The position numbers and the translations under genes were made by a program. From NCBI GenBank assembly GCA_017538255.1, contig JAFYJD010000025.1, positions 25,306-89,305 of the forward strand: 64,000 bases of DNA, read 5' to 3'. Source of the stretch: Clostridia bacterium (GTDB taxonomy: Bacteria; Bacillota; Clostridia; Christensenellales; CAG-138). Positions 21,780-33,600 of this stretch are shown piece after piece (the stretch's first letter is position 1; every line of letters starts with the position of its first letter). The notes under the pieces were generated by a model, which did not search any database, was not told where the DNA came from, and was given only the letters and a program-made list of their open reading frames with translations.

Positions 21780-22190
21780 TTATATTCGGCTTTCCTTTTG
21801 ATCGCCTATCAGCATTTCTACAAGTTTGACGCATTCAAACACCAATCCGTCGCAAAACGGTTTTTTCTGTTGGCCGAGTCTCTCATTCCTATCAAGCAGG
21901 TCCTTGCAATCAAGCATATTTGAATGATTTAAATTGAGTTTTGCATAGTACTTCTCAATGGTGCCCGGATCATCTTTGCCCATTAGTCCAAGAGCCATCA
22001 ATCCTCCTGTAACGGCACCGCAGACAGAGCCGCGTTTCATCCCTCCGCCGAAGTTGGCGGCGATATTTCGCAGCATTTCCTCGTCAACCTCTGCCGATTT
22101 TGCAAAGGGCATCAAAACAGATTGGGCACAATTATAATGCGGTGATTGAGATTCGCGCAGTTCGCGCGCTCTGTTAATACAGTAATCCAT
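21780..22190 (-). CDS. C-GCAxxG-C-C family putative redox protein
   Basis: NCAQSV, GGGM..GSVCGAVTGG, LDC, FC. Confidence 0.9.
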   Translation of the reverse strand: MDYCINRARELRESQSPHYNCAQSVLMPFAKSAEVDEEMLRNIAANFGGGMKRGSVCGAVTGGLMALGLMGKDDPGTIEKYYAKLNLNHSNMLDCKDLLDRNERLGQQKKPFCDGLVFECVKLVEMLIGDQKESRI

Positions 22191-22212
22191 TTTTCTTCCT
22201 CCATAAATAACC

Positions 22213-22243
22213 AAAACTGCCGGGCAATGCGTTTTGCCCGGCA
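22213..22243 (-). terminator. Terminator after the small peptide gene
   Basis: tgccgggcaa/ttgcccggca stem with a T tail on the minus strand. Confidence 0.65.
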
Positions 22244-22267
22244 ATATTCAAGCGATAATACTCCTTC

Positions 22268-22531
22268 TCAGGAGTTAAATGTAACGCCGTCCGTGGTGGA
22301 AGCGTACAGGCAAGCCTTGTCGTCGCCGCCGTATTTGGCCATAAACTCGTGGTCGGTCATCGTGCAATCGACTTCCGGAATGAATATAATGACAGGTTCG
22401 CCGGTGTCAATATCATCAAACCCCATATCGACGGGGATCCAGTAATCCTCAGCGTCGACGCAGGTGCGTACTTCGTTGTTGCCCTTAAGATTCTGAGCGT
22501 AAAGGACGGGTTTCTGGTATGATTTCTTCAT
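22268..22531 (-). CDS. Small acidic 87-aa protein with a YxxPxL N-terminal motif
   Basis: RBS gagagg; MKKSYQKPVLYAQNL...; three Cys; ends DGVTFNS. Confidence 0.75.
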   Translation of the reverse strand: MKKSYQKPVLYAQNLKGNNEVRTCVDAEDYWIPVDMGFDDIDTGEPVIIFIPEVDCTMTDHEFMAKYGGDDKACLYASTTDGVTFNS

Positions 22532-22550
22532 AACTAATTCCTCTCTATAA

Positions 22551-22971
22551 TCAGTTCAATGCCGCTCGCATAACGATTATCGCATCATCTACGGTGAGAC
22601 AGCCGTCTGAGTTCATATCGGCGCAGTAGCGGCCGTATGCATCGAGATCACAAATACCCATCGCCACGCGAAGCGCAATGATAACGTCCACGATATCGAT
22701 GTCGGCATCCGCGTTGACGTCGCCCTTTGTACCGGCTATTACAGCAGTTGCGAGTTCAAGCGTATTGCCAATAAATGCAGCCGTCGATAGTACCGCTTTT
22801 GGGGCCGGAGCCTTTGGTCTCAACGGCTTTAACTGCGGCATAGAAGTTTTTGGCTGTTTCTGCCGTTGCGCCGATGAACGCCGGAAGAGAGCCGAAAACA
22901 AAAGCCGCGACCAGCAGTATCGTAGCTATAGTGCAAAACGACCGTTTTTGTGTTGAAAATGACTTCTTCAT
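22551..22971 (-). pseudogene. Collapsed secreted dockerin-domain protein (signal peptide joined out of frame to a dockerin repeat pair)
   Basis: Signal peptide ORF MKKSFSTQKR..ATAE stops at 22756; another frame carries KGDVNADADIDIVDVIIALR..ADMNSDGCLTVDDAIIVMR. Confidence 0.75.
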
Positions 22972-23392
22972 AGTTCTAACCCCCTGTAAGTATTCTGTGA
23001 TCGACCGATTTCGCCTAACCAGTATATCGCTTAGCGTTTTGCGAAGCCTATCACGGAATAGGACTTGCATAAAACAACAGCGCCTATTCGCACACATTAA
23101 TATAATAACACATATCGCAAAAATAGTCAACTCAGTTTTAGTTTCGTGCTATGGAGTGCTCTTGTCCAAAATCCTATGGATTACTTTTGGAATTAATCAT
23201 TACGCTTGTTAATTTAATTATGTCAAACCAACCATTCTGCGGATCTGATAATGCGATATTAAAGAACAGGCTGTTCAAATATAATCGATATAATCGTTAT
23301 TTTGACGATTTTGTATGCTTTTGGGGGCTTTTCAACGCCTTTCGCGCCAATAAAGTACTGTACCAAACGCGTCCATTGCGCGCGCACAGCAA

Positions 23393-23620
23393 TCACTCTA
23401 TCTCGGCCTCGGCTGTCTTGCGCTCCTTGATCGTGGCTTCCATATTCTCAACAAACTCTTGATACTCCTCGGTATAGCGAGTCTTGGGAGGATCGATATC
23501 GGAAGGATCGACGGTGAAGGTATTTACAGTATTTCCGTAGTTGGCCAAGTCGAATGCGCGGGTCGCTTCTTCCTTCTTTTTCTGTTTCTTTTTTGCTTTA
23601 AAAAGTTTGATGAACTTCAT
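23393..23620 (-). CDS. Small hypothetical protein
   Basis: RBS caggag, own TATAAT promoter, Lys-rich N-terminus and acidic C-terminus. Confidence 0.6.
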   Translation of the reverse strand: MKFIKLFKAKKKQKKKEEATRAFDLANYGNTVNTFTVDPSDIDPPKTRYTEEYQEFVENMEATIKERKTAEAEIE

Positions 23621-23700
23621 AGCGGTATCTCCTGTTGTTTGGTGATGAGCCTATTATATCTCAAAAGTTTGGAAATGGCAAGAACGCAGTCGAAAACCGT

Positions 23701-24339
23701 TCAATCGGCGATTATGTCGCCGAAATTGCCTTTTATAAAGTGGCGGTATTCCGGATGATCGACGGCGTTTTCGTACTCCTTGATGATCGTTGCGCGATTC
23801 CACTCCCTTGTCTTTTCATCCAATTGATCGTATCGCTCGATCCTGATAAGGCCATGCCTCTCGGCTTCGAGTATCGCTTCGTATGCGTCGGGCACATACT
23901 CAACGCCAGCCACATCGACCGGCGCGCCGCTCGTCGCGGCAAACGGTATTTTAACGGAGATACCCGGCGTTTCGATCGCCTCAACGCTGTAGATATAGGC
24001 GGATACGCCCCTATAGGTGGATTCGAGCGCGTTTTTATAATACTCCGTTATACATTGCACGCCGTTCTTATCGAATCCGTAAGGACCCCACTTCTGCCAT
24101 TTGCCGTTATACTCAAAGCCGGTTTCTTTGCAGTATTTTTCTATCGCGTTTGACAAATACACGAGCACGTTTTCCCTTTTTTCGGAAAAATAGATAAGAG
24201 GAACGCCGTGATTTGAAACGCGCGGCTCAAGCCTTGTTATGTTAGGTATGTTTGACGCGTGATAGAACAATATGGTATCTCCGTTATTGAAACTTTGTTT
24301 TTTCTGTATGCTCCCAGTATCATCTGCCGAGTACCGCAT
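23701..24339 (-). CDS. Hypothetical protein, possible H-Y clade (Arr/DUF952-like) ADP-ribosyltransferase fold
   Basis: LFYHAS..LEP..SNH..LIYFS, AYIYSVE; start codon overlaps the VOC stop; true start uncertain. Confidence 0.55.
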   Translation of the reverse strand: MRYSADDTGSIQKKQSFNNGDTILFYHASNIPNITRLEPRVSNHGVPLIYFSEKRENVLVYLSNAIEKYCKETGFEYNGKWQKWGPYGFDKNGVQCITEYYKNALESTYRGVSAYIYSVEAIETPGISVKIPFAATSGAPVDVAGVEYVPDAYEAILEAERHGLIRIERYDQLDEKTREWNRATIIKEYENAVDHPEYRHFIKGNFGDIIAD

Positions 24340-24701
24340 TACACGGGAGTTCCTACTTCGATCAGATTCCCGTCCAGGTCATAGAATCTGACAACTCGCT
24401 GCCCCCAGCTGTGCGTCATAAGACGGTTTACATACTCGATGTTTGGATAGAGCCTTTCAAGTTTTTCAATAAAAGCCTCGATCTCCGACTCTTCAAAATA
24501 CAGTTCTGTGCTGTTGTTTCTTGATAATATGTTTTTTCCTAAGAATGCTTCCCAGTATTCGGCTTCCTGTAAATACAAGCCGCCTGTCAACTCCATATTG
24601 CCGTCGTTGTCCCGTATCAGTTCAAACCCAAACAGATCATGGTAAAACTTTAAAGCGGCATTACAGTCCTTCACAACCAGAAGCGCTCCTCTGTATTTCA
24701 T
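24339..24701 (-). CDS. VOC (glyoxalase/bleomycin resistance) family protein
   Basis: FYHDLFG, ELYFE, HSWGQRVVRFYDLDGNLIEVG. Confidence 0.92.
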   Translation of the reverse strand: MKYRGALLVVKDCNAALKFYHDLFGFELIRDNDGNMELTGGLYLQEAEYWEAFLGKNILSRNNSTELYFEESEIEAFIEKLERLYPNIEYVNRLMTHSWGQRVVRFYDLDGNLIEVGTPV

Positions 24702-24758
24702 CTAGACATCTCCTTTCGGCGAAGAAAACTCACAAAAATATTATGGCTTTATTGTTTT

Positions 24759-25853
24759 TTATTTGCTTGATAAATCAATGAAGGAATAATCAGTATTTTC
24801 TATCCTTGATCTCATAATCTCAATAGACATTTCCGACTTATCTATACCAACAAATCTTCGATTATGTTTTTGAGCAGCTAATAACATTGATCCACTTCCA
24901 GCAAAGCAGTCCATTACATAGCTGCCTTTTTCAGATGATTGAAGTATTATTTGCTCAAGCATATCGCTATTCTTTTCTGTAGGATAGACAGGATATTGGG
25001 GGTCTTTGAATGACCAAATATCTTGTATCTTTTTCCCTTGATGTTCGTCCGCATATTTTTTAATCCTAGGATTCCCGGTGGAAGACCATTCTATCATGTT
25101 CAGCGAATCAAGTCTATCAAACTCTGTTGGGTCTGTACGCCAGTGCCGTCCTTGAGGAGGATTCATTCCCCTCCACGGTTGCCCAGTTGGGCTACTGACA
25201 CTAGATTCTCCAGGAGCATGAAGAGGAATAGTGGTATAACGCCTTCCATCACTATCCACCTTACTAAATCGTTTCGCTATCTCTTCATTCGTACATTTTA
25301 AACGTATATCGTTCCATATTCCAGAATTCGTTTTTGTGTAAAAGAGTATCATATCCTTTTGGTTACCGTATGCTTTACGGTCAAAGTTCTTGGGGTTGGA
25401 TTTAATCCTTGTTATATCGTTTTTGAAACAATCATCTCCGAATATTTCGTCAAGCATTACCTTAAAATAGTGTCCCATTTTTGTGTCTATATGGACATAC
25501 AAACTCCCCTTATTGGACAAGAGCTCACGAATTAAAACAAACCTTTCATACATGAACTTCAAGTATTCATCCTTAGTCATTACATCGGAATATGCAACTT
25601 TGCCATTTCGTGATCTACTTATAGTGCTTACTCTGTCGTCAGATACTAAGAAAATTTGATCGGTGTTAAAAGGAGGATCTATGTAAACAAGATCAATCTT
25701 ATCTTTATAGTCCGGCATCATAGAAGACATGGCTAAAAAATTATCACCTTTGATAATTAAAGACTTTTCTTCGCATACAATTCTCGAGGTTGCTTTATTT
25801 GAGCGTTCAATAATTGCCTCGTGTGATTCTTTTCCATCGAAGATAATGTTCAT
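24759..25853 (-). CDS. Type II amino-DNA methyltransferase (beta class), similar to GTSAC-specific M.Tsp45I/M.Hpy99II-type enzymes
   Basis: IKGDN, DLVYIDPPF before DCFAGSGS; RIKSNPKNF, YTTIPLHAPGE, PPQGRHWR, FKDPQYPVYPTEKN. Confidence 0.88.
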   Translation of the reverse strand: MNIIFDGKESHEAIIERSNKATSRIVCEEKSLIIKGDNFLAMSSMMPDYKDKIDLVYIDPPFNTDQIFLVSDDRVSTISRSRNGKVAYSDVMTKDEYLKFMYERFVLIRELLSNKGSLYVHIDTKMGHYFKVMLDEIFGDDCFKNDITRIKSNPKNFDRKAYGNQKDMILFYTKTNSGIWNDIRLKCTNEEIAKRFSKVDSDGRRYTTIPLHAPGESSVSSPTGQPWRGMNPPQGRHWRTDPTEFDRLDSLNMIEWSSTGNPRIKKYADEHQGKKIQDIWSFKDPQYPVYPTEKNSDMLEQIILQSSEKGSYVMDCFAGSGSMLLAAQKHNRRFVGIDKSEMSIEIMRSRIENTDYSFIDLSSK

Positions 25854-25864
25854 TGGATTTCCCT

Positions 25865-26665
25865 CTATATTGAGTATAAGTATTCTCTTAACAATAGGCT
25901 TGAAAGAATGGTTTGATCGTCGTGTTCTCTAAGATGCCTATGCATTTTGTTATTACCAGTTATATACAAAACCCCATCACAGATTGCTATTTTATTAACC
26001 GTTACATTAAAACGATTCGGCAAAAGCGAAGATGTAATTGTGGATACTGCATCAGCAAATTGTGCATCTTGATGCCCTCCAAAGTCCGTAAGAAACTTTG
26101 CCTCTCCAATGACATATTGCGAGTTAAAGCGAGCAACAAAATCTAGTCCTTTATTATGACTATATCCCAAATAATCACTTGCAAAGCGTTGCATCTCGGT
26201 GTCTGAAGCGTTCAAAACTGCATTTCCGTTAGCTGCGAGAAATTCATTAACAGTATTGTATACTGGCGCTCCAAGCATCCCACGCGCAATCCATCTTTTA
26301 AAAAGCGGACCTATTTGCCTATTCGTTTCTTTCGGTTCGGTACATTTTTCATAGATAACATCTAATCCCATTTCATAAAGATTACCAGCAAGCCTGTTTA
26401 CAGTCTCAGGATTTCGTGATATCGATTCTGGGTCTCTTTTTAAATACGCGACATACGAATCCTTTATTGGGAATAACTCCAATGTTAATAACTCTCTTAC
26501 CAAAGTCTCGTTGTCTTGGCGTTCAAATGAAGTTTGAACTCGTTTCCATTGATTATTGTCAATTTCTCTGCGAATATTGGGTGACATTGGATACACTTTA
26601 AAAAGTTCATCTAAATAATTACTTTGATTTGCAAATTGCACACTCAATTCAGTCCAGTAATTCAT
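25865..26665 (-). CDS. Type II restriction endonuclease, Tsp45I-like
   Basis: MNYWTELS..ANQ.NYLDELFKVYP, EPKETNRQIGPLF, KGLDF..IGEAKFLTDFGGHQ PD-(D/E)xK core; adjacent to the MTase; low GC. Confidence 0.8.
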   Translation of the reverse strand: MNYWTELSVQFANQSNYLDELFKVYPMSPNIRREIDNNQWKRVQTSFERQDNETLVRELLTLELFPIKDSYVAYLKRDPESISRNPETVNRLAGNLYEMGLDVIYEKCTEPKETNRQIGPLFKRWIARGMLGAPVYNTVNEFLAANGNAVLNASDTEMQRFASDYLGYSHNKGLDFVARFNSQYVIGEAKFLTDFGGHQDAQFADAVSTITSSLLPNRFNVTVNKIAICDGVLYITGNNKMHRHLREHDDQTILSSLLLREYLYSI

Positions 26666-26689
26666 ATAATTCCTCCTGTAATCCATGTT

Positions 26690-26838
26690 ATATAAGTTGG
26701 AAGTGTCTGAACGCTTCCATAATGGCAGTTTCCTTTTCTTCAGTACATCCTGCCTATCTGGAATCTTCCGATTTTACCAACTTAAAAGCACAACAGTCTC
26801 AACATGCCCCGCCAGCAGAACATATCCACCGGCTGGCA
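26690..26838 (-). pseudogene. Remnant of a foreign rlmD 3' end with its C-terminal extension (att-site scar)
   Basis: CQPVDMFCW(frameshift)GHVETVVLLSW*, then KSEDSR*AGCTEEKETAIMEAFRHFQLI*. Confidence 0.75.
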
Positions 26839-26925
26839 TTAATCGGGCTGGTAGCTGCCGACGTATAAGTCGCTACTTTTTCTTGAACAGAAACTTCGCG
26901 CGGCTCTTTCCGGAACGGTATGCCG

Positions 26926-27900
26926 TCAGGATAATGCCCAGCAAGCCGGGGCAAAAACGAACCATGAAGAAAAATGCTTTCGTGCTATTCTTTTGTGGCT
27001 TTGTTTCCGCCTCTGCCGAGATGATTTCCTCCCGAAGTTTTTTTCTGCTTCCTTCCGCTCGTCTTTAGAGAAGTGGGACAGCATCAGATAAAACCGCACC
27101 AATTTGTCGCGCCGCTTTTGCTGGTAGGTTTCCAACTGTTCCACTGAAAAGACTTCCGGCGTGTGATCCCGAATGAAAGTCTCTGATCGAGACTGCGACA
27201 GCATCCGATCCTCTATTTTTTTGACCGATAAGCTACCGGTGGTAATACTGCCGGGCCGCTTTCTGTACATATATAATACCTTATCCAGAACAAATATGCG
27301 TTGGTTTCGAGCATATATCCTGTAGGTGATATCAACATCCTCAAACACATGGCCTTCCAGGAATCTTTCAGTCTCCCAAATTTCCCGGGCGTACAGCTTA
27401 TTCCATACACCAAAGTTCAGCGTTCCGTCAAATAAAGCGCGAATGACGGCATCGCGATCATATTTGCCGGGCCGGATCGCTGGTCCTGTTTGCATACAGT
27501 TTTCCAGGCCCATGACAGACGTCGTTTTATGCAAAGAATGCCGACAAACCACGATATTCACGTCTTCCTGAATCATGGCAGTTACCATGCTCTCTACAAA
27601 CGAAGCGTCATAGGCGTCATCGGAATCCAAAAAGGCGATCAATTTGCCCCGTGCACTGTTCAGGCCGGCGTTCCGCGCGCCTCCAGGGCCTTTATTCTCC
27701 TGATGAAGCACAACAAAGCGATTGTCCCTTTGGGCGTATTGATCGCAAAGCGCTGCCGAACCGTCGGTCGAACCATCATCAATGACGATGATTTCCAAAT
27801 TGGTATAGGTCTGGTGGATTACGCTGTCAAGCGCCTCTGCCAGGAAAGGCCGGATATTATAGACCGGTATGATGATGCTGACGAGAGGATTGTTCTCCAC
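26926..27900 (-). CDS. Glycosyltransferase family 2 (C-terminus probably frameshifted at an A7 tract)
   Basis: LVSIIIPVYN, IDDGSTDGS, ARNAGL, FLDSDD, VWNKLY, FED; GTG start with gaggtg RBS. Confidence 0.9.
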   Translation of the reverse strand: MENNPLVSIIIPVYNIRPFLAEALDSVIHQTYTNLEIIVIDDGSTDGSAALCDQYAQRDNRFVVLHQENKGPGGARNAGLNSARGKLIAFLDSDDAYDASFVESMVTAMIQEDVNIVVCRHSLHKTTSVMGLENCMQTGPAIRPGKYDRDAVIRALFDGTLNFGVWNKLYAREIWETERFLEGHVFEDVDITYRIYARNQRIFVLDKVLYMYRKRPGSITTGSLSVKKIEDRMLSQSRSETFIRDHTPEVFSVEQLETYQQKRRDKLVRFYLMLSHFSKDERKEAEKNFGRKSSRQRRKQSHKRIARKHFSSWFVFAPACWALS

Positions 27901-28240
27901 ATTTCTGCACCTCTTTTCATATTCAAATGGCCCCGTACGCCGCCTTATACCGGTTCACCGCAGAAACAGGTACTGACCGCCGGCAATGCTTATTGCAGCT
28001 GCTTTGTGATCATCCGGCGCACAAAGCCGGGAAGGTGAAAGCACTGGAACCGGTTCAGCATCCGCGGGGCAGCCGTTTTCAGGCTTTTTTCAATACCCAA
28101 TGCCGCAGCGGCTGTGCAAACACAATACTTAGCCGGTTTTCAGCATTTCATCGCAATTTTGAACGGCGGGACAGAGCATCTTTCATCCAATATGCGATTC
28201 CGCATATAGACCTTTCGAGGCTTGTTTACGTATTCATTCT

Positions 28241-28369
28241 CGATATCTCGCCCTTGGAAAGCTTCACCACCGTCTCCACATGCCTCGGAGCTCTCGTATC
28301 CGTGTCCGATATGCGCTGACCGTTCGAGGAAACAAGTCAGACAACCGTGGGCGTTCAAGGAAACATGTC
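28241..28369 (-). repeat. Cluster of rlmD 3'-end half-site copies
   Basis: gacatgtttccttgaacg (28352-28369), gacttgtttcctcgaacg (28321-28338), catgtggagacggtggtgaagctttccaagggcgagata (about 28244-28282). Confidence 0.8.
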
Positions 28370-28434
28370 TGCGAACCGCTCCCCGCCGCAACTGATGACA
28401 GTGTGGGGACCTTGGTGTCTTCAAAATAATTTTT

Positions 28435-28977
28435 TTACTGCCTTATCCGGTCGAGATATTCATCATCAGTAATACCGGCTGGAAACTCACAGTTGTATTC
28501 CTTCAGCAGAAGATTATTCTCATTATATTTATCCTTAAGTACCGCCTTTAGATAGTCAGTAAAAAAGCTTTTGAACCATTGTACACTCTCGTTTAAGTCA
28601 GAGAAACCGTATTCACCCAATTGAATACCGAGACTGTTGTCGGGTGTGGGGCACCATTTCTCTTGATACAGCATAAAAACCTGTGTGTGCGTTTGATGGA
28701 GTTCTTCTGATCTGTACTCCATAAACCATGAGTGGTATGGAATGCTGTTCCTGATACAATACTGTTTTGTGAGCTCGGCTATTTCCCAGCACCAAGCACA
28801 ATTGTTCTCAACAACTTCTTTGACAGAAGAAAAAGTGTAATCATGGACTGCAAAGTTTTCATCATCCTGAAAATGAAGCTTCCCTTGTATATCTTTATAG
28901 CCGTAACGAATAGACGCCACATAAGCAAAAAACGCGTCGGGGCTCAATCTCATAATCTCTGTATACTTTATAGGCAT
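28435..28977 (-). CDS. Hypothetical protein with a transglutaminase-like Cys/His arrangement
   Basis: IRYGY, AWCWEIAEL, QTHTQVFMLYQEKW; RBS ggaggt. Confidence 0.6.
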   Translation of the reverse strand: MPIKYTEIMRLSPDAFFAYVASIRYGYKDIQGKLHFQDDENFAVHDYTFSSVKEVVENNCAWCWEIAELTKQYCIRNSIPYHSWFMEYRSEELHQTHTQVFMLYQEKWCPTPDNSLGIQLGEYGFSDLNESVQWFKSFFTDYLKAVLKDKYNENNLLLKEYNCEFPAGITDDEYLDRIRQ

Positions 28978-28997
28978 TCTATACCTCCATTTTCTCC

Positions 28998-29181
28998 GGA
29001 CATCGAAACTACAGTTACAGTCCCATTTGACAACAGAACGAGAGTCTCAACCTCTTGAAAACCCTCAAATGACAACAGTCCGATAGTCTCAATCTCACAT
29101 TTTTGCCGCTGATAGCGAACCGAGAGTTACAGCACCAGATTTCCCTGATTTTGCTCTCTCGCTCTGTGGAAACTTATCCAC
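28998..29181 (-). repeat. Cluster of degenerate rlmD 3'-end half-site copies
   Basis: VDKFPQS-like (29161-29181), AVTLGSLS (29110-29133), EIETIGLLS (29070-29096), EVETLVLLS (29027-29054), TVTVVSMS (28998-29021). Confidence 0.75.
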
Positions 29182-29244
29182 GCTTCTGCTGACGGTCAGA
29201 CCCTGAAAAACCCCTTATTTCCAGCCATTTTCCCGCTATCGTCC

Positions 29245-30606
29245 TCAATTCCTTGACAGCAGAACGACCGTCTCCACGTGCCCTGTCTGCGGAAACATAT
29301 CGAACGGTTTAACGCATTCTATCATATAGCCCCCTTCGTTTGCAAGTATCTTACAATCCCTTGCGAGTGTTGCGGGGTTACAAGAAACATACACTATGCG
29401 CGAAACACCGCTATGGATTATCGCATCGAGCGCAGAACGCTGCACGCCCTGCCGAGGCGGGTCGATGAGCAGTTTTGATATTCGTCTGCCGCTTGAAACG
29501 AGTTTTGGCAAAACCTCCTCCGCTCCGCCGCATAGGAACTCGGCGTTGTTTACGCCGTTTGAGACTGCGTTATTGATCGCATCGTCTACCGCACTTTGAA
29601 CATACTCGATGCCGATGACGCTTTTTGCGTGCTTAGCGATAAGCAGCGACAGCGTGCCTATGCCGCAATACAAATCCGCGACGTCATCGGCGGCGTTTAA
29701 GTCAAGCAGGTCAACTGCGGTTTTATAGAGTTTTTCGGTCTGACTGTGATTAACCTGCAAAAAACTTTGCGCGCTCACCTCAAAATCCGATCCCAACAGC
29801 CGCTCCCTAACCGTCTTTTTGCCATACAGCACTATATCCCTCCTGCCGAGTATGCCGCTGTGCCGCGATCTTGAAACGTTATTGACAACGCTTCTAAGCG
29901 TATTTATATTTTTCCCAAGCCGCTCGATAAGCGCATCAGTTCCTTTGAGCGGAACTGACGAAACGATCACGATCATTGTTTCATCAGGCGATGTAGTGCG
30001 AACGATCAGGTTTTTGAGCACTCCTCTGCCGCTTGATTCGTCATAGGCTGAAAGGCGCGCATCCCGCGCCCAGTCAAGCACAATTTTAAGCGCGCAAAAT
30101 GCGCGTTCATCCTGAAGCAAGCAGTCTTCCGCCGCGACAATACTGTGGGAGTTTCGCTCATAGCAGCCGCAGACAAGTACGCCCTTATGCATACCGAAAC
30201 CGAATACCGCTTTGTTGCGGTAGCGAAACTCACTTTCGGCGGGCGCGCAGGGCTCCGTCGTTACGCCCCTAAAACCGCCGATGCGTTCGAGCGCGTCCTG
30301 AACGCGGGAGCGTTTGAGTTCGAGTTGGCTTTTGTAATCGATATGTTGGATATCGCATCCGCCGCATTTGGAAAAAACGGGACAGACCGGGTCTCGCCGC
30401 ACGGGTGAAGATTTGATAACGCGATCAAGCCTTGCTACGGCATAGTTGGGGGCCGTTTTTTCGACCTTGGCGAGCACGGTCTCGCCCGCAATCGCGCCGT
30501 GAATAAAGACAGCGATCCCGTCCGCGCGACCAACGCCCTGCCCCTCCGAGCCGTATGAATCGATCGTAAGTTCGATCTGTTTGTTTACATAAAGCGAATG
30601 CTGCAT
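29245..30606 (-). CDS. rlmD: 23S rRNA (uracil-1939-C5)-methyltransferase
   Basis: TRAM domain, CPVFSKCGGC, SFLQVN, DLYCGIGT, DPPRQG, YVSCNPATLARD, DMFPQTGHVETV. Confidence 0.96.
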   Translation of the reverse strand: MQHSLYVNKQIELTIDSYGSEGQGVGRADGIAVFIHGAIAGETVLAKVEKTAPNYAVARLDRVIKSSPVRRDPVCPVFSKCGGCDIQHIDYKSQLELKRSRVQDALERIGGFRGVTTEPCAPAESEFRYRNKAVFGFGMHKGVLVCGCYERNSHSIVAAEDCLLQDERAFCALKIVLDWARDARLSAYDESSGRGVLKNLIVRTTSPDETMIVIVSSVPLKGTDALIERLGKNINTLRSVVNNVSRSRHSGILGRRDIVLYGKKTVRERLLGSDFEVSAQSFLQVNHSQTEKLYKTAVDLLDLNAADDVADLYCGIGTLSLLIAKHAKSVIGIEYVQSAVDDAINNAVSNGVNNAEFLCGGAEEVLPKLVSSGRRISKLLIDPPRQGVQRSALDAIIHSGVSRIVYVSCNPATLARDCKILANEGGYMIECVKPFDMFPQTGHVETVVLLSRN

Positions 30607-30607
30607 A

Positions 30608-33600
30608 TCATTTTTTCGGCGGGATCACCTTAACGTTTGCTTCGCCGAGCAGGCCGACAAGCGTTGCCAGCATCTCGTCATTGAGATTTACGCAGAGCGT
30701 CTTGGGCGCGAGCTGCTTTCTGCCCGTTACGGCATTTGCAAAGATAACATCGCTGTTTCCCGGATAGCGGCGAAGGAGCTCTATGACCTTGTTTTGCAGG
30801 CCGTCGGTTTCCGCTGTAAAGTTGAGCGCAAGTCGCATCACACCGCCCTTTTGCAGCGGCTCAACCTCCTCAACAATAACAGTGTTCTTCCTGTCCTCAC
30901 GGAGCGAAAGCCTGCCGGAGATTATCACGCGCATATCCTTGACGAGCAGCGAGGCAAACTTTTGATAGACCTTCGGGAATGCGAGGAACTCAACTTCACC
31001 GAGAAGATCCTCTATCATACCCGACGCCATAATTCCCGAACCCGACTGCACCGCGCGTTTGTTGACCGATGAGATCAGGCCGCCTACACGCACGCTTGCG
31101 CCGTCCCAGATGTGGCTTTGCTCGTCCGCCTCGCTAAGGTCAAGACAGTTAAAGCCGAGTTTTGAAAGCTGCTCCTCGTAGCCCATAAGCGGATGACCGC
31201 TGACATAGACGCCAAGTTTGTCCTTTTCTGTCGCAAGGAGTTCCTCCGGCGGGAACTCAACAAGCGCCTCCGGGTCAAGTTTTTTTACTTCCGTATCCTC
31301 CGGTTTTGAGAACGCCGCATCAAACAGCGAAAGCTGACCCGATTCGATGCGTTTTCTGTCCGCACCGGCGGCGGCAAGTTCCTGCTCGTAATGCCCCATA
31401 AGATATTTGCGCGACGCACCGAAACTGTCGAAGCATCCGCCGAGGATCATACCTTCCACAAGACGTTTATTGAGGCCGGGACAACGCTTTACAAAGTCCG
31501 AGAAGTCCTTAAAATTGCCGTTCTCCTGCCGCTCAAGAAGCATTTCCTTCACAACGCCTTCACCGACGTTCTTTATAGCGGCGATACCGAATCGGATAGC
31601 GCCGTTTTCGACGGTGAACCGTGGCTCGCTCTTGTTGATATCCGGCGGCAAAAGTTGTATGCCGCGCCGTTTACAATAGTAGATATAACCCGCGATCTTG
31701 TCTGTTTCGTTGATAAAACTGTTGATGAGCGCTGTCATAAACTCAACTGGATACAGGCATTTCAACAGCGCGGTACGATACGCCACGACAGCATAGCAGG
31801 CCGCGTGCGCCTTGTTGAATGCATATGATGCAAAATCCATCATCTCGTCGAATATCTTTTCCGCAACAGGCTCAGGCACTCCTCTGCGCAGAGCGCCGTC
31901 AACGACTATCTTTCCGTCTTCCTCTATGCCGTAGATGAAGTTCTTGCGCTCCTCGGCCATAACATCGTGCTTTTTCTTACTCATTGCGCGGCGCACAAGG
32001 TCGCTTCTTCCGAGCGAATAACCCGCGACGCTTCGCACGATCTGCATAACCTGTTCCTGATAGACCATACAGCCGTAGGTCGTCGATAGGATCGGGCGCA
32101 GCAGTTCGGTCTCGTAATGTACGCTTGAAGCGTTCTGTTTGCCCTCTATATAGCGCGGGATCTGATCCATCGGGCCGGGGCGGAACAAAGAGATGCCCGC
32201 GATGATATCCTCGAAGCAGGAGGGCTTCATCTGCATCATAAAGTTTGTCATACCCGGCGATTCAAGTTGAAAAACGCCGACAGTTTCGCCGCTTGAGATC
32301 AAGTCATAAACACGCTTATCATCGTAATCGCAGTTTGAAAAATCCGGCGGAGTTTCGCCCTTATTTCGAACATAATCAAGGCAGTCGCGGATGACTGTGA
32401 GCGTTCTCAGGCCCAAAAAGTCCATTTTGAGCATCCCGAGTTCCTCGAGTTCCGTCATCGTGAACTGGGTGGTTATTGCTTCATCGTTGCGCTGAAGAGG
32501 AACAAGTTCCATAGTCGGAAGTGATGAGATCACAACGCCTGCCGCATGGGTGGAAGTGTTGCGCGGCAGCCCCTCTACCTTCTCGGACAGGTCGATGAGT
32601 TTACGCACCTTATCGTCGCTGCTGTACAGATCGGCAAGTTCGGGTATCGTTTCTACCGCTTTTTCGATCGTCATCTTGGCCTGCGGGTTATTGGGGATGA
32701 GTTTTGCGATCCTGTCAACATCCTGATACGGAACACGCAGCACCCTTCCTACATCCCGCACGGCGGCACGCGCCGCCATAGTGCCGAATGTTACTATCTG
32801 CGCGACGTGATCGCTGCCGTATTTTTCTTTAACATAGTCTATGACCTCCTGCCTGCGCTCATAGCAGAAGTCAACATCAAAGTCCGGCATGCTGACCCTT
32901 TCGGGGTTCAGAAAACGCTCGAACAGAAGATTGTATTTTATCGGATCGACATCGGTTATCCCGATCGCATAGGCAACTATCGACGCGGCGCCGCTGCCTC
33001 GGCCCGGTCCGACCTCTATGCCGTGGCTTTTTGCGAAGTGGATGAAATCCCATACTATGAGATAATAATCCACAAAGCCCATATTTGTGATGACGCCGAG
33101 TTCAAACTCAAGCCTTTCCGTCTGTTCTTTATTGGGCGCGCCGTAACGCTTTTGCATACCTTCCGCGCAGAGTTTTCTGAGGTAGGTCTCGTTATCCAGC
33201 CCGTCCGGTGCTATGAACTCCGGCAGATGACGCTTGCCAAATTCGATCTTAAGATCGCATTTGGCTGCGACTTCGGAGGTATTATGGACCGCGTCCTCAT
33301 ACCCGTGCATACGGGCGAGCATCTCCTCTTCTGATTTTAGATAGAACTCGTCCGCTTCCATTCGCATTCGGTTGGTATCATCTATGAACTTGCCCGTCTG
33401 AACACACAAAAGCGCGTCCTGCGCCTCGGCGTCCGACTTCAGCACATAGTGCACATCGTTGGTTGCAACGGTCTTTATGCCGAGTTCCTTTGCGAGTTCA
33501 TTTAGTCTCGGAAGCACCACGAGTTGTTCGGGGATGCCGTGGTTTTGCAGTTCGATATAAAAATCATCGCCGAAGATGCTTTTAAGACGCAGAGCGAGGC

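Follow-up and report, generated by a model that had tools for sequence, protein, structure and literature searches.

We have analysed the DNA behind rlmD, the gene for a 23S rRNA uracil-5 methyltransferase, in a stretch of 64,000 nucleotides from contig JAFYJD010000025.1 of a Clostridia bacterium (assembly GCA_017538255.1; hereafter the window). The 3' end of this gene is probably an attachment site (attB). The reading that we favour is that two non-autonomous, recombinase-less cassettes would have been inserted there successively, moved in trans by a large serine recombinase. The window contains three junctions bounding two cassettes (Table 1), rather than ten independent sites. Below, G, L and X numbers denote the genomes, loci and sequencing runs that were compared.

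The resident RlmD was recognised by its TRAM (E 1e-10) and tRNA_U5-meth_tr (E 4e-26) domains in an intact open reading frame (ORF) without stops, as expected of RlmD/RumA. The gene is preceded by dnaE on the minus strand, and homologues were present in 41 of the 41 relatives searched. On the minus strand rlmD ends in GATATGTTTCCGCAGACA GGG CACGTGGAGACGGTCGTTCTGCTGTCA, and the core of this tail, CAYGTNGAGACNGTNGT, is present at the three junctions (29254-29280, 28256-28282 and 26780-26806). When the window's contig was translated in six frames, the motif HVETVV appeared at these three places only.

Separate weight matrices were used to score the two halves of the tail, DMFPQT on the left (18 nt) and HVETVVLLS on the right (27 nt). 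The matrices were derived from the rlmD tails of 19 of 20 fetched relatives (one had no recognisable tail), with the window left out, and were applied to all ~3.53 million positions of the 1.76-Mb genome, counting both strands. The right-half matrix ranked rlmD itself first, 28256-28282 second, 26780-26806 third, 29028-29054 fifth and 29070-29096 26th, and the left-half matrix ranked rlmD first, 28352-28369 11th, 28321-28338 21st and 29161-29178 37th. The half-sites supported in this way all lie within 2.6 kb and on the rlmD strand. Two right halves, 29110-29130 and 28998-29018, are identical to the rlmD 21-mer at 13 of 21 positions, a level reached by 1702 of the 3.53 million genome positions and again at 28821, 28036, 27708 and 27444 within the same 2.6 kb (three of these inside ORFs). 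Taken singly they are at chance level, and their only support comes from being conserved, phased parts of a module found in 12 copies, described below. In the joined copy at junction 3, the left part carries a 1-nt deletion and is missed by the ungapped matrix, but two other organisms have an rlmD left half that agrees with it completely (100%) over 18-19 nt.

An earlier note on this DNA had described about ten half-sites derived from the rlmD tail, punctuating cargo genes. The coordinates and sequences of the half-sites were as it had written them; tail-derived sites do punctuate the cargo, and the copies share the minus-strand orientation of rlmD with every ORF from rlmD down to 23701. The separate left and right matrices that it had called for gave top ranks to the main copies, and eight of the ten half-sites were supported; the two weakest right halves, at chance by their matching level, did not hold on their own.

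Cassette 1 (29283-28283) is composed of a core, a left arm, the 180-aa ORF, a right arm and the next core. The left arm, module D1, is 86% and 84% identical to two copies in the array of G129, which belongs to another genus, 80% to a copy located after rlmD in G015 and 76% to one in G157, and G010 holds a partial copy. The rlmD bodies of the window and G129 are ~65% identical, below the 76-86% of D1. The module was found in five of 240 family genomes, in six stretches of a 185,579-species collection (all titled rumen, omasum or "RUG" metagenome-assembled genomes (MAGs), one of them titled Bacilli) and in six metagenome stretches; a scan of a viral collection with the D1 pattern returned nothing. 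Twelve copies could be aligned from the core to just before the ribosome-binding site, all with the same internal repeat layout (one 42-nt repeat unit is missing in L045), and D1 stands directly after a core in each of the ten copies with upstream DNA available. The same repeats in 12 copies argue that they arose once, in the ancestor of the module, and hold no record of integrations here. The earlier note had raised a fossil record of many integrations, an idea that finds no support here: the left half and the four right halves that it saw clustered in 28997-29283 belong to one module with at least 12 copies and, judged by this alignment, D1 is one inherited unit. The extra "half-sites" are fixed internal repeats of the arms and probably protein-binding sites.

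A structured RNA was also considered as the main reading of D1 and was dropped, with no Rfam match at E up to 1 over 22000-29400 and an unfavourable covariation term in the consensus folds of 5 and 12 copies. A double change was seen in 4 of 48-53 predicted pairs, and the pairing of the hairpin 29161-29176 is kept via two compensatory changes in the G010 copy only.

The right arm of cassette 1, U3, is 79% identical over 124 nt to the arm that precedes a core in L041 and 88% over 91 nt to that in L050, with the similarity setting in about 25-30 nt past the cargo stop codon in both the window and L041. The order in L041, a record titled Bacilli MAG, is core, D1 module, a 345-aa APH-like ORF, arm and core; that in L050 is D1 module, a 598-aa GmrSD_N ORF, arm and core. 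The 180-aa ORF of the window is unrelated to the L041 cargo (BLASTP E 9). Both arms of cassette 1 recur, ~80-88% identical, in rumen MAGs and metagenome contigs around unrelated cargo. Fixed ends around cargo that can be exchanged, as seen in these comparisons, mark a cassette family, and it is likely that cassette 1 belongs to a family of this kind that spreads horizontally.

The 180-aa product itself yielded in the protein atlas a lead only, to transglutaminase-like/DUF553 clusters. Its homologues were rejected as a sign of cargo mobility: they were found in two of 400 other genomes of the order (45-52% identity), and no core or arm lies within 1.5 kb of either.

Cassette 2, which carries the family 2 glycosyltransferase (GT2) gene, is bounded by decayed relics of an rlmD tail of another type. 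Some relatives (G003, G004, G005, G012, G024 and also L027, 2832-3158) have an RlmD C-terminal extension of ~100 aa with the motif …VEFSLEDMDMS…IAQ.K.K.GI…KPKS…CP.EKE.AI…F.MI*, which gave no Pfam match in the G005 and G004 proteins scanned. Some lineages have this extension, whereas in others an inserted cassette has cut it off. The tail at junction 2 (T2) matches residues 5-21 of the extension in the G060 and G005 RlmD by tblastn. The tail at junction 3 (T3) retains the last 28 extension codons after an internal deletion (tblastn 54-57% over 28 aa, E 1e-4 to 3e-3), ends 5 nt before the ATG of the restriction enzyme gene; upstream of the T3 core, the sequence is rlmD-like for 50 nt or more. 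The left half of T3 is of the PVDMF type of other organisms, the resident rlmD having PFDMF; to judge by these residues, it was probably brought in with a cassette arm or a foreign rlmD end. The GT2 gene is preceded by ~325 nt of non-coding DNA without relatives (27901-28225), and a comparison with 240 family genomes matched only the conserved GT2 N-terminus and fragments of the tail, with no close DNA relative of the cassette. We lean towards regarding cassette 2 as an older unit with arms that are no longer recognisable. Neither the matrices nor the arm comparison found a core or an arm below 26691, and the restriction-modification (R-M) pair, which the earlier note had counted as cargo, is therefore not demonstrably in the array.

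Two further observations concern this part of the locus. The last ~45 codons of GT2 (26926-27060) are very basic, do not resemble the usual GT2 end and overlap the rlmD-like sequence upstream of T3; this 3' end may have arisen by fusion or frameshift. In genomes with the extension tail (window 26686-26693; L012, L016, L021), unrelated genes begin ~5-25 nt past its stop, which hints at a second variable point exactly at the extension end. A second attachment site at that stop was rejected: the flanks differ in every genome and have nothing in common with those of the recombinase on contig 6 of this assembly.

Relatives have arrays of the same kind. Of 201 family genomes, 9 contain two or more exact matches to the core pattern on the same strand of a contig; the reversed control pattern gave one match at most. 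The array of G129 has six cores and five intervals of 0.6-1.7 kb, four with one ORF and one with two. Its cargo between cores comprises DUF4279, a trypsin-like peptidase, a nucleotidyltransferase, an unknown ORF and a DUF218 plus FMN-reductase pair, and a NUDIX gene follows the sixth core. Five cores were counted in the metagenome contig L048 (with GNAT, an SF0329 protein and an unknown ORF between), four in L041 and three in G010. Across loci the cargo included GNATs, APH-like proteins, nucleotidyltransferases, NUDIX, DUF4279, an HTH-DUF3791 plus DUF3990 pair and GmrSD. The 18-nt matrix gave 69 core matches with a score of at least 15 in the fetched loci, all but one of them (68) on the rlmD strand.

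We have then clustered the arms, taking 160 nt before and 280 nt after each core. The upstream clusters were the rlmD body (30 sites), U2 (13), U3 (3, window included) and U4 (2); the downstream ones were D1 (10), the extension tail (4) and D3 (3). The ten clustered D1 copies follow the rlmD body in four cases, U2 in three, U4 in one and unique arms in two, and the 13 U2 arms precede D1 (3), D3 (1) or other sequence (9). Left and right arms assort independently around the core. Regardless of the upstream sequence, bases specific to D1 set in ~15 nt inside the core, and those specific to the arms stop 1-3 nt short of it; the exchange therefore falls within ~17 nt starting at the junction of the left and right halves. 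This comparison across loci places the change from arm to arm close to where the earlier note had expected the switch.

No recombinase gene was found in or near the window's array, as that note had also observed. The genome encodes two large serine recombinases of full length, on contigs 6 and 26. A third ORF, located 70 kb beyond the window, has only the Recombinase domain. The three tyrosine recombinases of the genome map to contigs 12, 14 and 18, the window's contig being number 27. A resident recombinase aimed at rlmD was rejected as a candidate: six-frame motif scans and matrix scans placed no copy of the tail next to the three ORFs with a Recombinase domain, and the few left-half-like matches 0.6-3 kb from two of them are within chance. 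The search for an rlmD-targeting serine recombinase that the earlier note had suggested was run on this genome and returned no homologue of the rlmD-associated enzymes (best match 22%).

Such enzymes do occur in relatives. On contig 53 of G008, a small ORF stands between two full large serine recombinases, and this block is followed by a GmrSD operon, by arm U2 and by a core. An IMG/VR record (G620) has a recombinase block 91% identical to this one, with different cargo, arm U2, a core and the native extension tail, and the same trio of recombinases and small ORF stands just after rlmD in G019. The presence of U2 in both G008 contig 53 and G620 marks this arm as the right end of recombinase-bearing elements in rlmD. 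These elements, which end in U2, have the core in common with the window. In three arrays D1 and U2 adjoin one another at a shared core, from which it follows that the small cassettes use the core of these elements. Recombinase remnants separate rlmD from a core on contig 64 of G071. Over 17-20 kb past the cores, neither this contig nor G008 contig 53 showed a distal core; G008 contig 53 also lacks a terminal overlap and is thus not demonstrably circular.

Two side observations were made on these genes. The contig 6 recombinase (G000, ~28806-30380, locus L001) is 68% identical at the DNA level over 1.4 kb to a recombinase gene that follows closely on the rlmD extension tail in G620. On G008 contig 53 (L051, 4097-7129), immediately past the end of the recombinase-bearing element, an HsdS gene adjoins a tyrosine recombinase, which looks like a phase-variable type I R-M arrangement.

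Most of the stretch is present in six sequencing runs, four of which are possible sources of it, and the Logan contigs of four runs were compared; such contigs drop rare forms. The arrangement was exactly reproduced over 24384-31000 in the contigs of run X1. A 317-nt contig of another organism, ~86% identical, contains the joint 24702>29254, in which the core end is joined directly to the glyoxalase gene. The 3' part of that gene (bin 24234-24467) reached a depth of 161 vs. ~17 for its neighbours, with many variant contigs, and the glyoxalase-like gene (24339-24701) may be a popular cassette elsewhere. In X9, a bovine gut run of another study, two short contigs match the 180-aa gene over 28486-28845 with one mismatch each, and pieces of the D1 module are only ~89% identical; the run gives no cover over rlmD or GT2, which is not evidence of absence. 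The near-identical gene suggests a recent spread of this cargo, and together with the glyoxalase joint it hints at modularity in other organisms. The joints 29020>29249 and 29107>29212 were discarded for their short sides or other organisms' sequence. The back-joint 29278>26812 (depth 41-51 vs. 7-17 for this organism) was not accepted as a rearrangement either; it is best read as another organism's rlmD tail because the adjoining loose end translates like RlmD.

In the mechanism that we propose, the crossover would take place within the shared ~17-nt core (GG CAYGTNGAGACNGT), starting at the junction of the two halves. The incoming unit would supply a replacement tail that keeps rlmD open, and the previous tail would be pushed downstream; the newest tail would then lie nearest the gene and the oldest and most decayed, T3, farthest from it. 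The enzyme would be a large serine recombinase acting in trans, provided by elements like those of G008 contig 53 and G620. As the genome holds no cognate enzyme, its cassettes are probably stranded at present.

Several observations weigh against this proposal. The genome's own large serine recombinases are only ~22-23% identical to the rlmD-associated ones. Relatives of the paired recombinases at 36% identity or more were found in five of the ten genomes with arrays or arms that were checked (G008, G019, G071, G013 and G010); matches in G011 and G015 reach only 28-31%, and G129, with its six-core array, G157 and G191 have no such relative at E 1e-10. The arm types of the window, D1 and U3, were encountered next to U2-type junctions but never directly beside a recombinase gene. 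Serine integrases that have been studied act on sites of ~40-50 bp, unlike the long, repeat-rich arms described here. None of the seven joints listed from the assembled contigs, which drop rare forms, links two cores as excision or a circle would. Finally, the lack of conserved arms in cassette 2 and the decay of T2 and T3 are what ordinary erosion would produce.

Such erosion is the content of the first alternative, namely that large integrative and conjugative elements (ICEs), integrative and mobilizable elements (IMEs) or prophages at rlmD were worn down by deletion and that no small unit was ever mobile. It would account for the truncated or internally deleted tails T2 and T3, for a cassette 2 without conserved arms, for the lack of a recombinase here and of a cognate one in the genome, and for the recombinase remnants of G071 contig 64; moreover, rumA/rlmD is a documented hotspot with tandem accretion (PMC4701971, PMC7168690 and PMC13651849). 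Independent deletions, however, would not repeatedly leave one ORF with the same arms, yet U3 sets in alike in the window and L041. One arm pair surrounds three unrelated cargoes, the left arm is 76-86% identical across genera in which rlmD is ~65% identical, and arrays reach 5-6 units, mostly of single ORFs. We consider plain decay unlikely. The alternative offered by the earlier note, sites reusable by a recombinase acting in trans, is favoured over decay by the arms, the arrays and their assortment; its cognate enzyme was not found in this genome, and neither a circle nor reordering was seen. The integron-like idea is better supported than plain decay, on evidence that is wholly comparative.

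Homologous recombination, with the rlmD tail and arms as RecA-dependent homology anchors and no dedicated recombinase, seems improbable to us. It would fit G073, in which more than 110 nt of the rlmD 3' end are repeated on both sides of a 139-aa ORF, the rlmD-like sequence of at least 50 nt upstream of the T3 core and the persistence of arrays where no related recombinase was found. The common core, on the other hand, is only ~17-27 nt long and the arms are shared between classes (L041 is titled Bacilli) with poor flanking homology, tandem direct repeats would be unstable under RecA and not accumulate, and U2 is tied to paired serine recombinases in two records. It is very doubtful that D1 is a cis-regulatory leader (RNA or protein-binding DNA) for the gene after rlmD, for although it is always 5' untranslated to a cargo gene, ends just before the ribosome-binding site and has in G010 the compensated hairpin, it matches nothing in Rfam, covariation is unfavourable in both folds, the downstream genes are functionally unrelated and all ten copies begin inside the recombination core.

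Table 1. Features of the rlmD locus, in positions of the window
Feature	Position	Strand	Description
rlmD, 23S rRNA uracil-5 methyltransferase, 453 aa	29245..30606	minus	Pfam TRAM + tRNA_U5-meth_tr
Junction 1	29254..29301	minus	Left half 29284-29301 (DMFPQT), 3-nt spacer, core/right half R0 29254-29280 (HVETVVLLS); present rlmD end
Left arm of cassette 1, module D1	28997..29283	minus	Core + ~260 nt non-coding (270-290 nt arm)
D1 internal repeats	29161-29181; 29110-29130, 29070-29096, 29028-29054, 28998-29018	minus	Hairpin-like left-half look-alike (first); right-half-like (the others)
Cargo 1, 180-aa ORF	28435..28977	minus	No Pfam/NCBIfam family
Right arm of cassette 1, U3	28283..28405	minus	Two left-half-like boxes, 28352-28369 and 28321-28338, 31 nt apart
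Junction 2 (T2)	28226..28282	minus	Core + first ~17 codons of extension tail (HVETVVKLSKGEISRMNT*), then truncated
Cargo 2, family 2 glycosyltransferase (GT2)	26926..27900	minus	Pfam Glycos_transf_2, E 6e-39
Junction 3 (T3)	26691..26836	minus	Left-half copy 26807-26836 (1-nt deletion), core 26780-26806 (HVETVVLLS), extension end 26691-26774
Tsp45I-type restriction enzyme	25865..26686	minus	Pfam
N6/N4 DNA methylase	24759..25853	minus	Pfam
Glyoxalase/bleomycin-resistance-like protein	24339..24701	minus	Pfam
212-aa ORF	23701..24339	minus	

Farther from rlmD, the GC content drops to 34-40% in the R-M pair (24759-26686), and the C_GCAxxG gene (21780-22244) is the first that is also found downstream of rlmD in two relatives. 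A consensus scan of the interval revealed no promoter- or terminator-like excess, and the cassette genes are probably transcribed by read-through from rlmD. Among the 40 relatives searched, at least 10 have a contig that stops within ~2.5 kb downstream of rlmD or at its end (loci L006, L008, L009, L014, L015 and L021; genomes G014, G018, G020 and G022), as expected of a strain-variable or repeated region in MAG assembly.

Among known systems, the proposed mechanism is like that of the staphylococcal cassette chromosome (SCC) and the scale like that of integrons. The locus resembles SCC composite islands, ccr-less tandem cassettes included, in that the 3' end of an rRNA methyltransferase gene is the target and the gene is kept intact, in tandem stacking with each element bounded by a direct repeat of the target end, and in paired large serine recombinases, here in the relatives' elements. 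The units in the window are bounded by such repeats (29254-29280, 28256-28282 and 26780-26806). SCC elements, however, measure kilobases to tens of kilobases, whereas the units here span 0.5-1.7 kb and mostly hold one ORF, and we know of no SCC counterpart to the conserved, repeat-bearing arms of 120-290 nt. The SCC target is rlmH (orfX); here it is rlmD/rumA by domains, in a rumen Clostridia-type MAG. The window's array also lacks a ccr-type large serine recombinase gene, the pairs being found in G008 contig 53, G620 and G019. SCC cassettes that lack a recombinase can be moved in trans, as is proposed for the cassettes here, and defence genes are likewise abundant in their cargo; SCCmec recombinases are reported also to mobilise tandem defence cassettes (bioRxiv 10.1101/2023.03.17.533233).

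The likeness to integrons, and to clusters of attC sites lacking integron-integrases (CALINs), lies in short, mostly single-ORF units in one orientation at a fixed site, with no promoter-like excess. Arrays of this form were seen in the window, G129 and L048, promoterless by consensus scan only. Each unit ends in a conserved recombination site of ~100 nt, the kinds of cargo are similar, and arrays can exist without a recombinase in cis. Unlike in integrons, the array is not adjoined by an IntI tyrosine recombinase, and next to it are dnaE, rlmD and cargo. A housekeeping gene end takes the place of attI as the fixed site, and the relatives' enzymes are large serine recombinases. Nor are the arms attC-like folded palindromes: no fold is supported by covariation, and in the candidate stem of U2 one side varies and the other is invariant.

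Elements mobilised in cis by accretion (CIMEs) are bounded by the att sites of an integrative element family, lack an integrase and stack at one conserved gene end, a layout that the cassettes here may share. The genomic islands at ssrA of Dehalococcoides invite the same comparison, as far as PMC3146451 describes them. The targets in these two cases are fda and ssrA, and the units are much larger than here. At streptococcal rumA, single serine integrases insert ICEs, IMEs and prophages with tandem accretion, as set out in PMC4701971, PMC5357655 and PMC7168690, and rlmD is among the phage-ICE tandem sites listed in PMC13651849. Target gene, serine recombinase family and tandem accretion are the same in those elements, as these sources portray them. 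They are large and autonomous, with one integrase gene overlapping attR and an altered RumA C-terminus (PMC4701971), whereas the units here are gene-sized and integrase-less and restore the HVETVV tail. Pfam assigned the window's cargo to GT2, an R-M pair and glyoxalase, with no relaxase or integrase, as an ICE or IME would have. A search of full-text literature, without supplementary element lists, found no gene-sized cassette arrays at rlmD and no family of gene-sized cassettes with fixed arms and swapped cargo.

A broader reading, which we put forward tentatively and hold to be possible, is that the rlmD end hosts an undescribed gene-capture platform of rumen Firmicutes, integron-like but built on serine recombination, in which gene-sized, promoterless cassettes would be captured, stacked, shuffled and spread between classes. 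Visiting elements would supply the large serine recombinases in trans, and read-through from rlmD would express the cassettes. By analogy, the rlmD end would correspond to attI and the right arm of ~110-140 nt to attC, sometimes with a left arm of 270 nt in addition.

Were these units truly mobile, gut and rumen Firmicutes would have at rlmD a second answer to the task of integrons in Proteobacteria, different in mechanism, with modular capture of single genes behind a housekeeping gene. Scans for the core and arms would locate accessory, defence and drug-modifying genes in uncultured anaerobes, the frequent breaks of MAG contigs right after rlmD would be explained, and natural sets of attB sites, arms and serine recombinases would be at hand. 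The cautious reading, too, changes the picture of this locus, "ten scars" becoming three junctions and two conserved, horizontally shared cassette arms.

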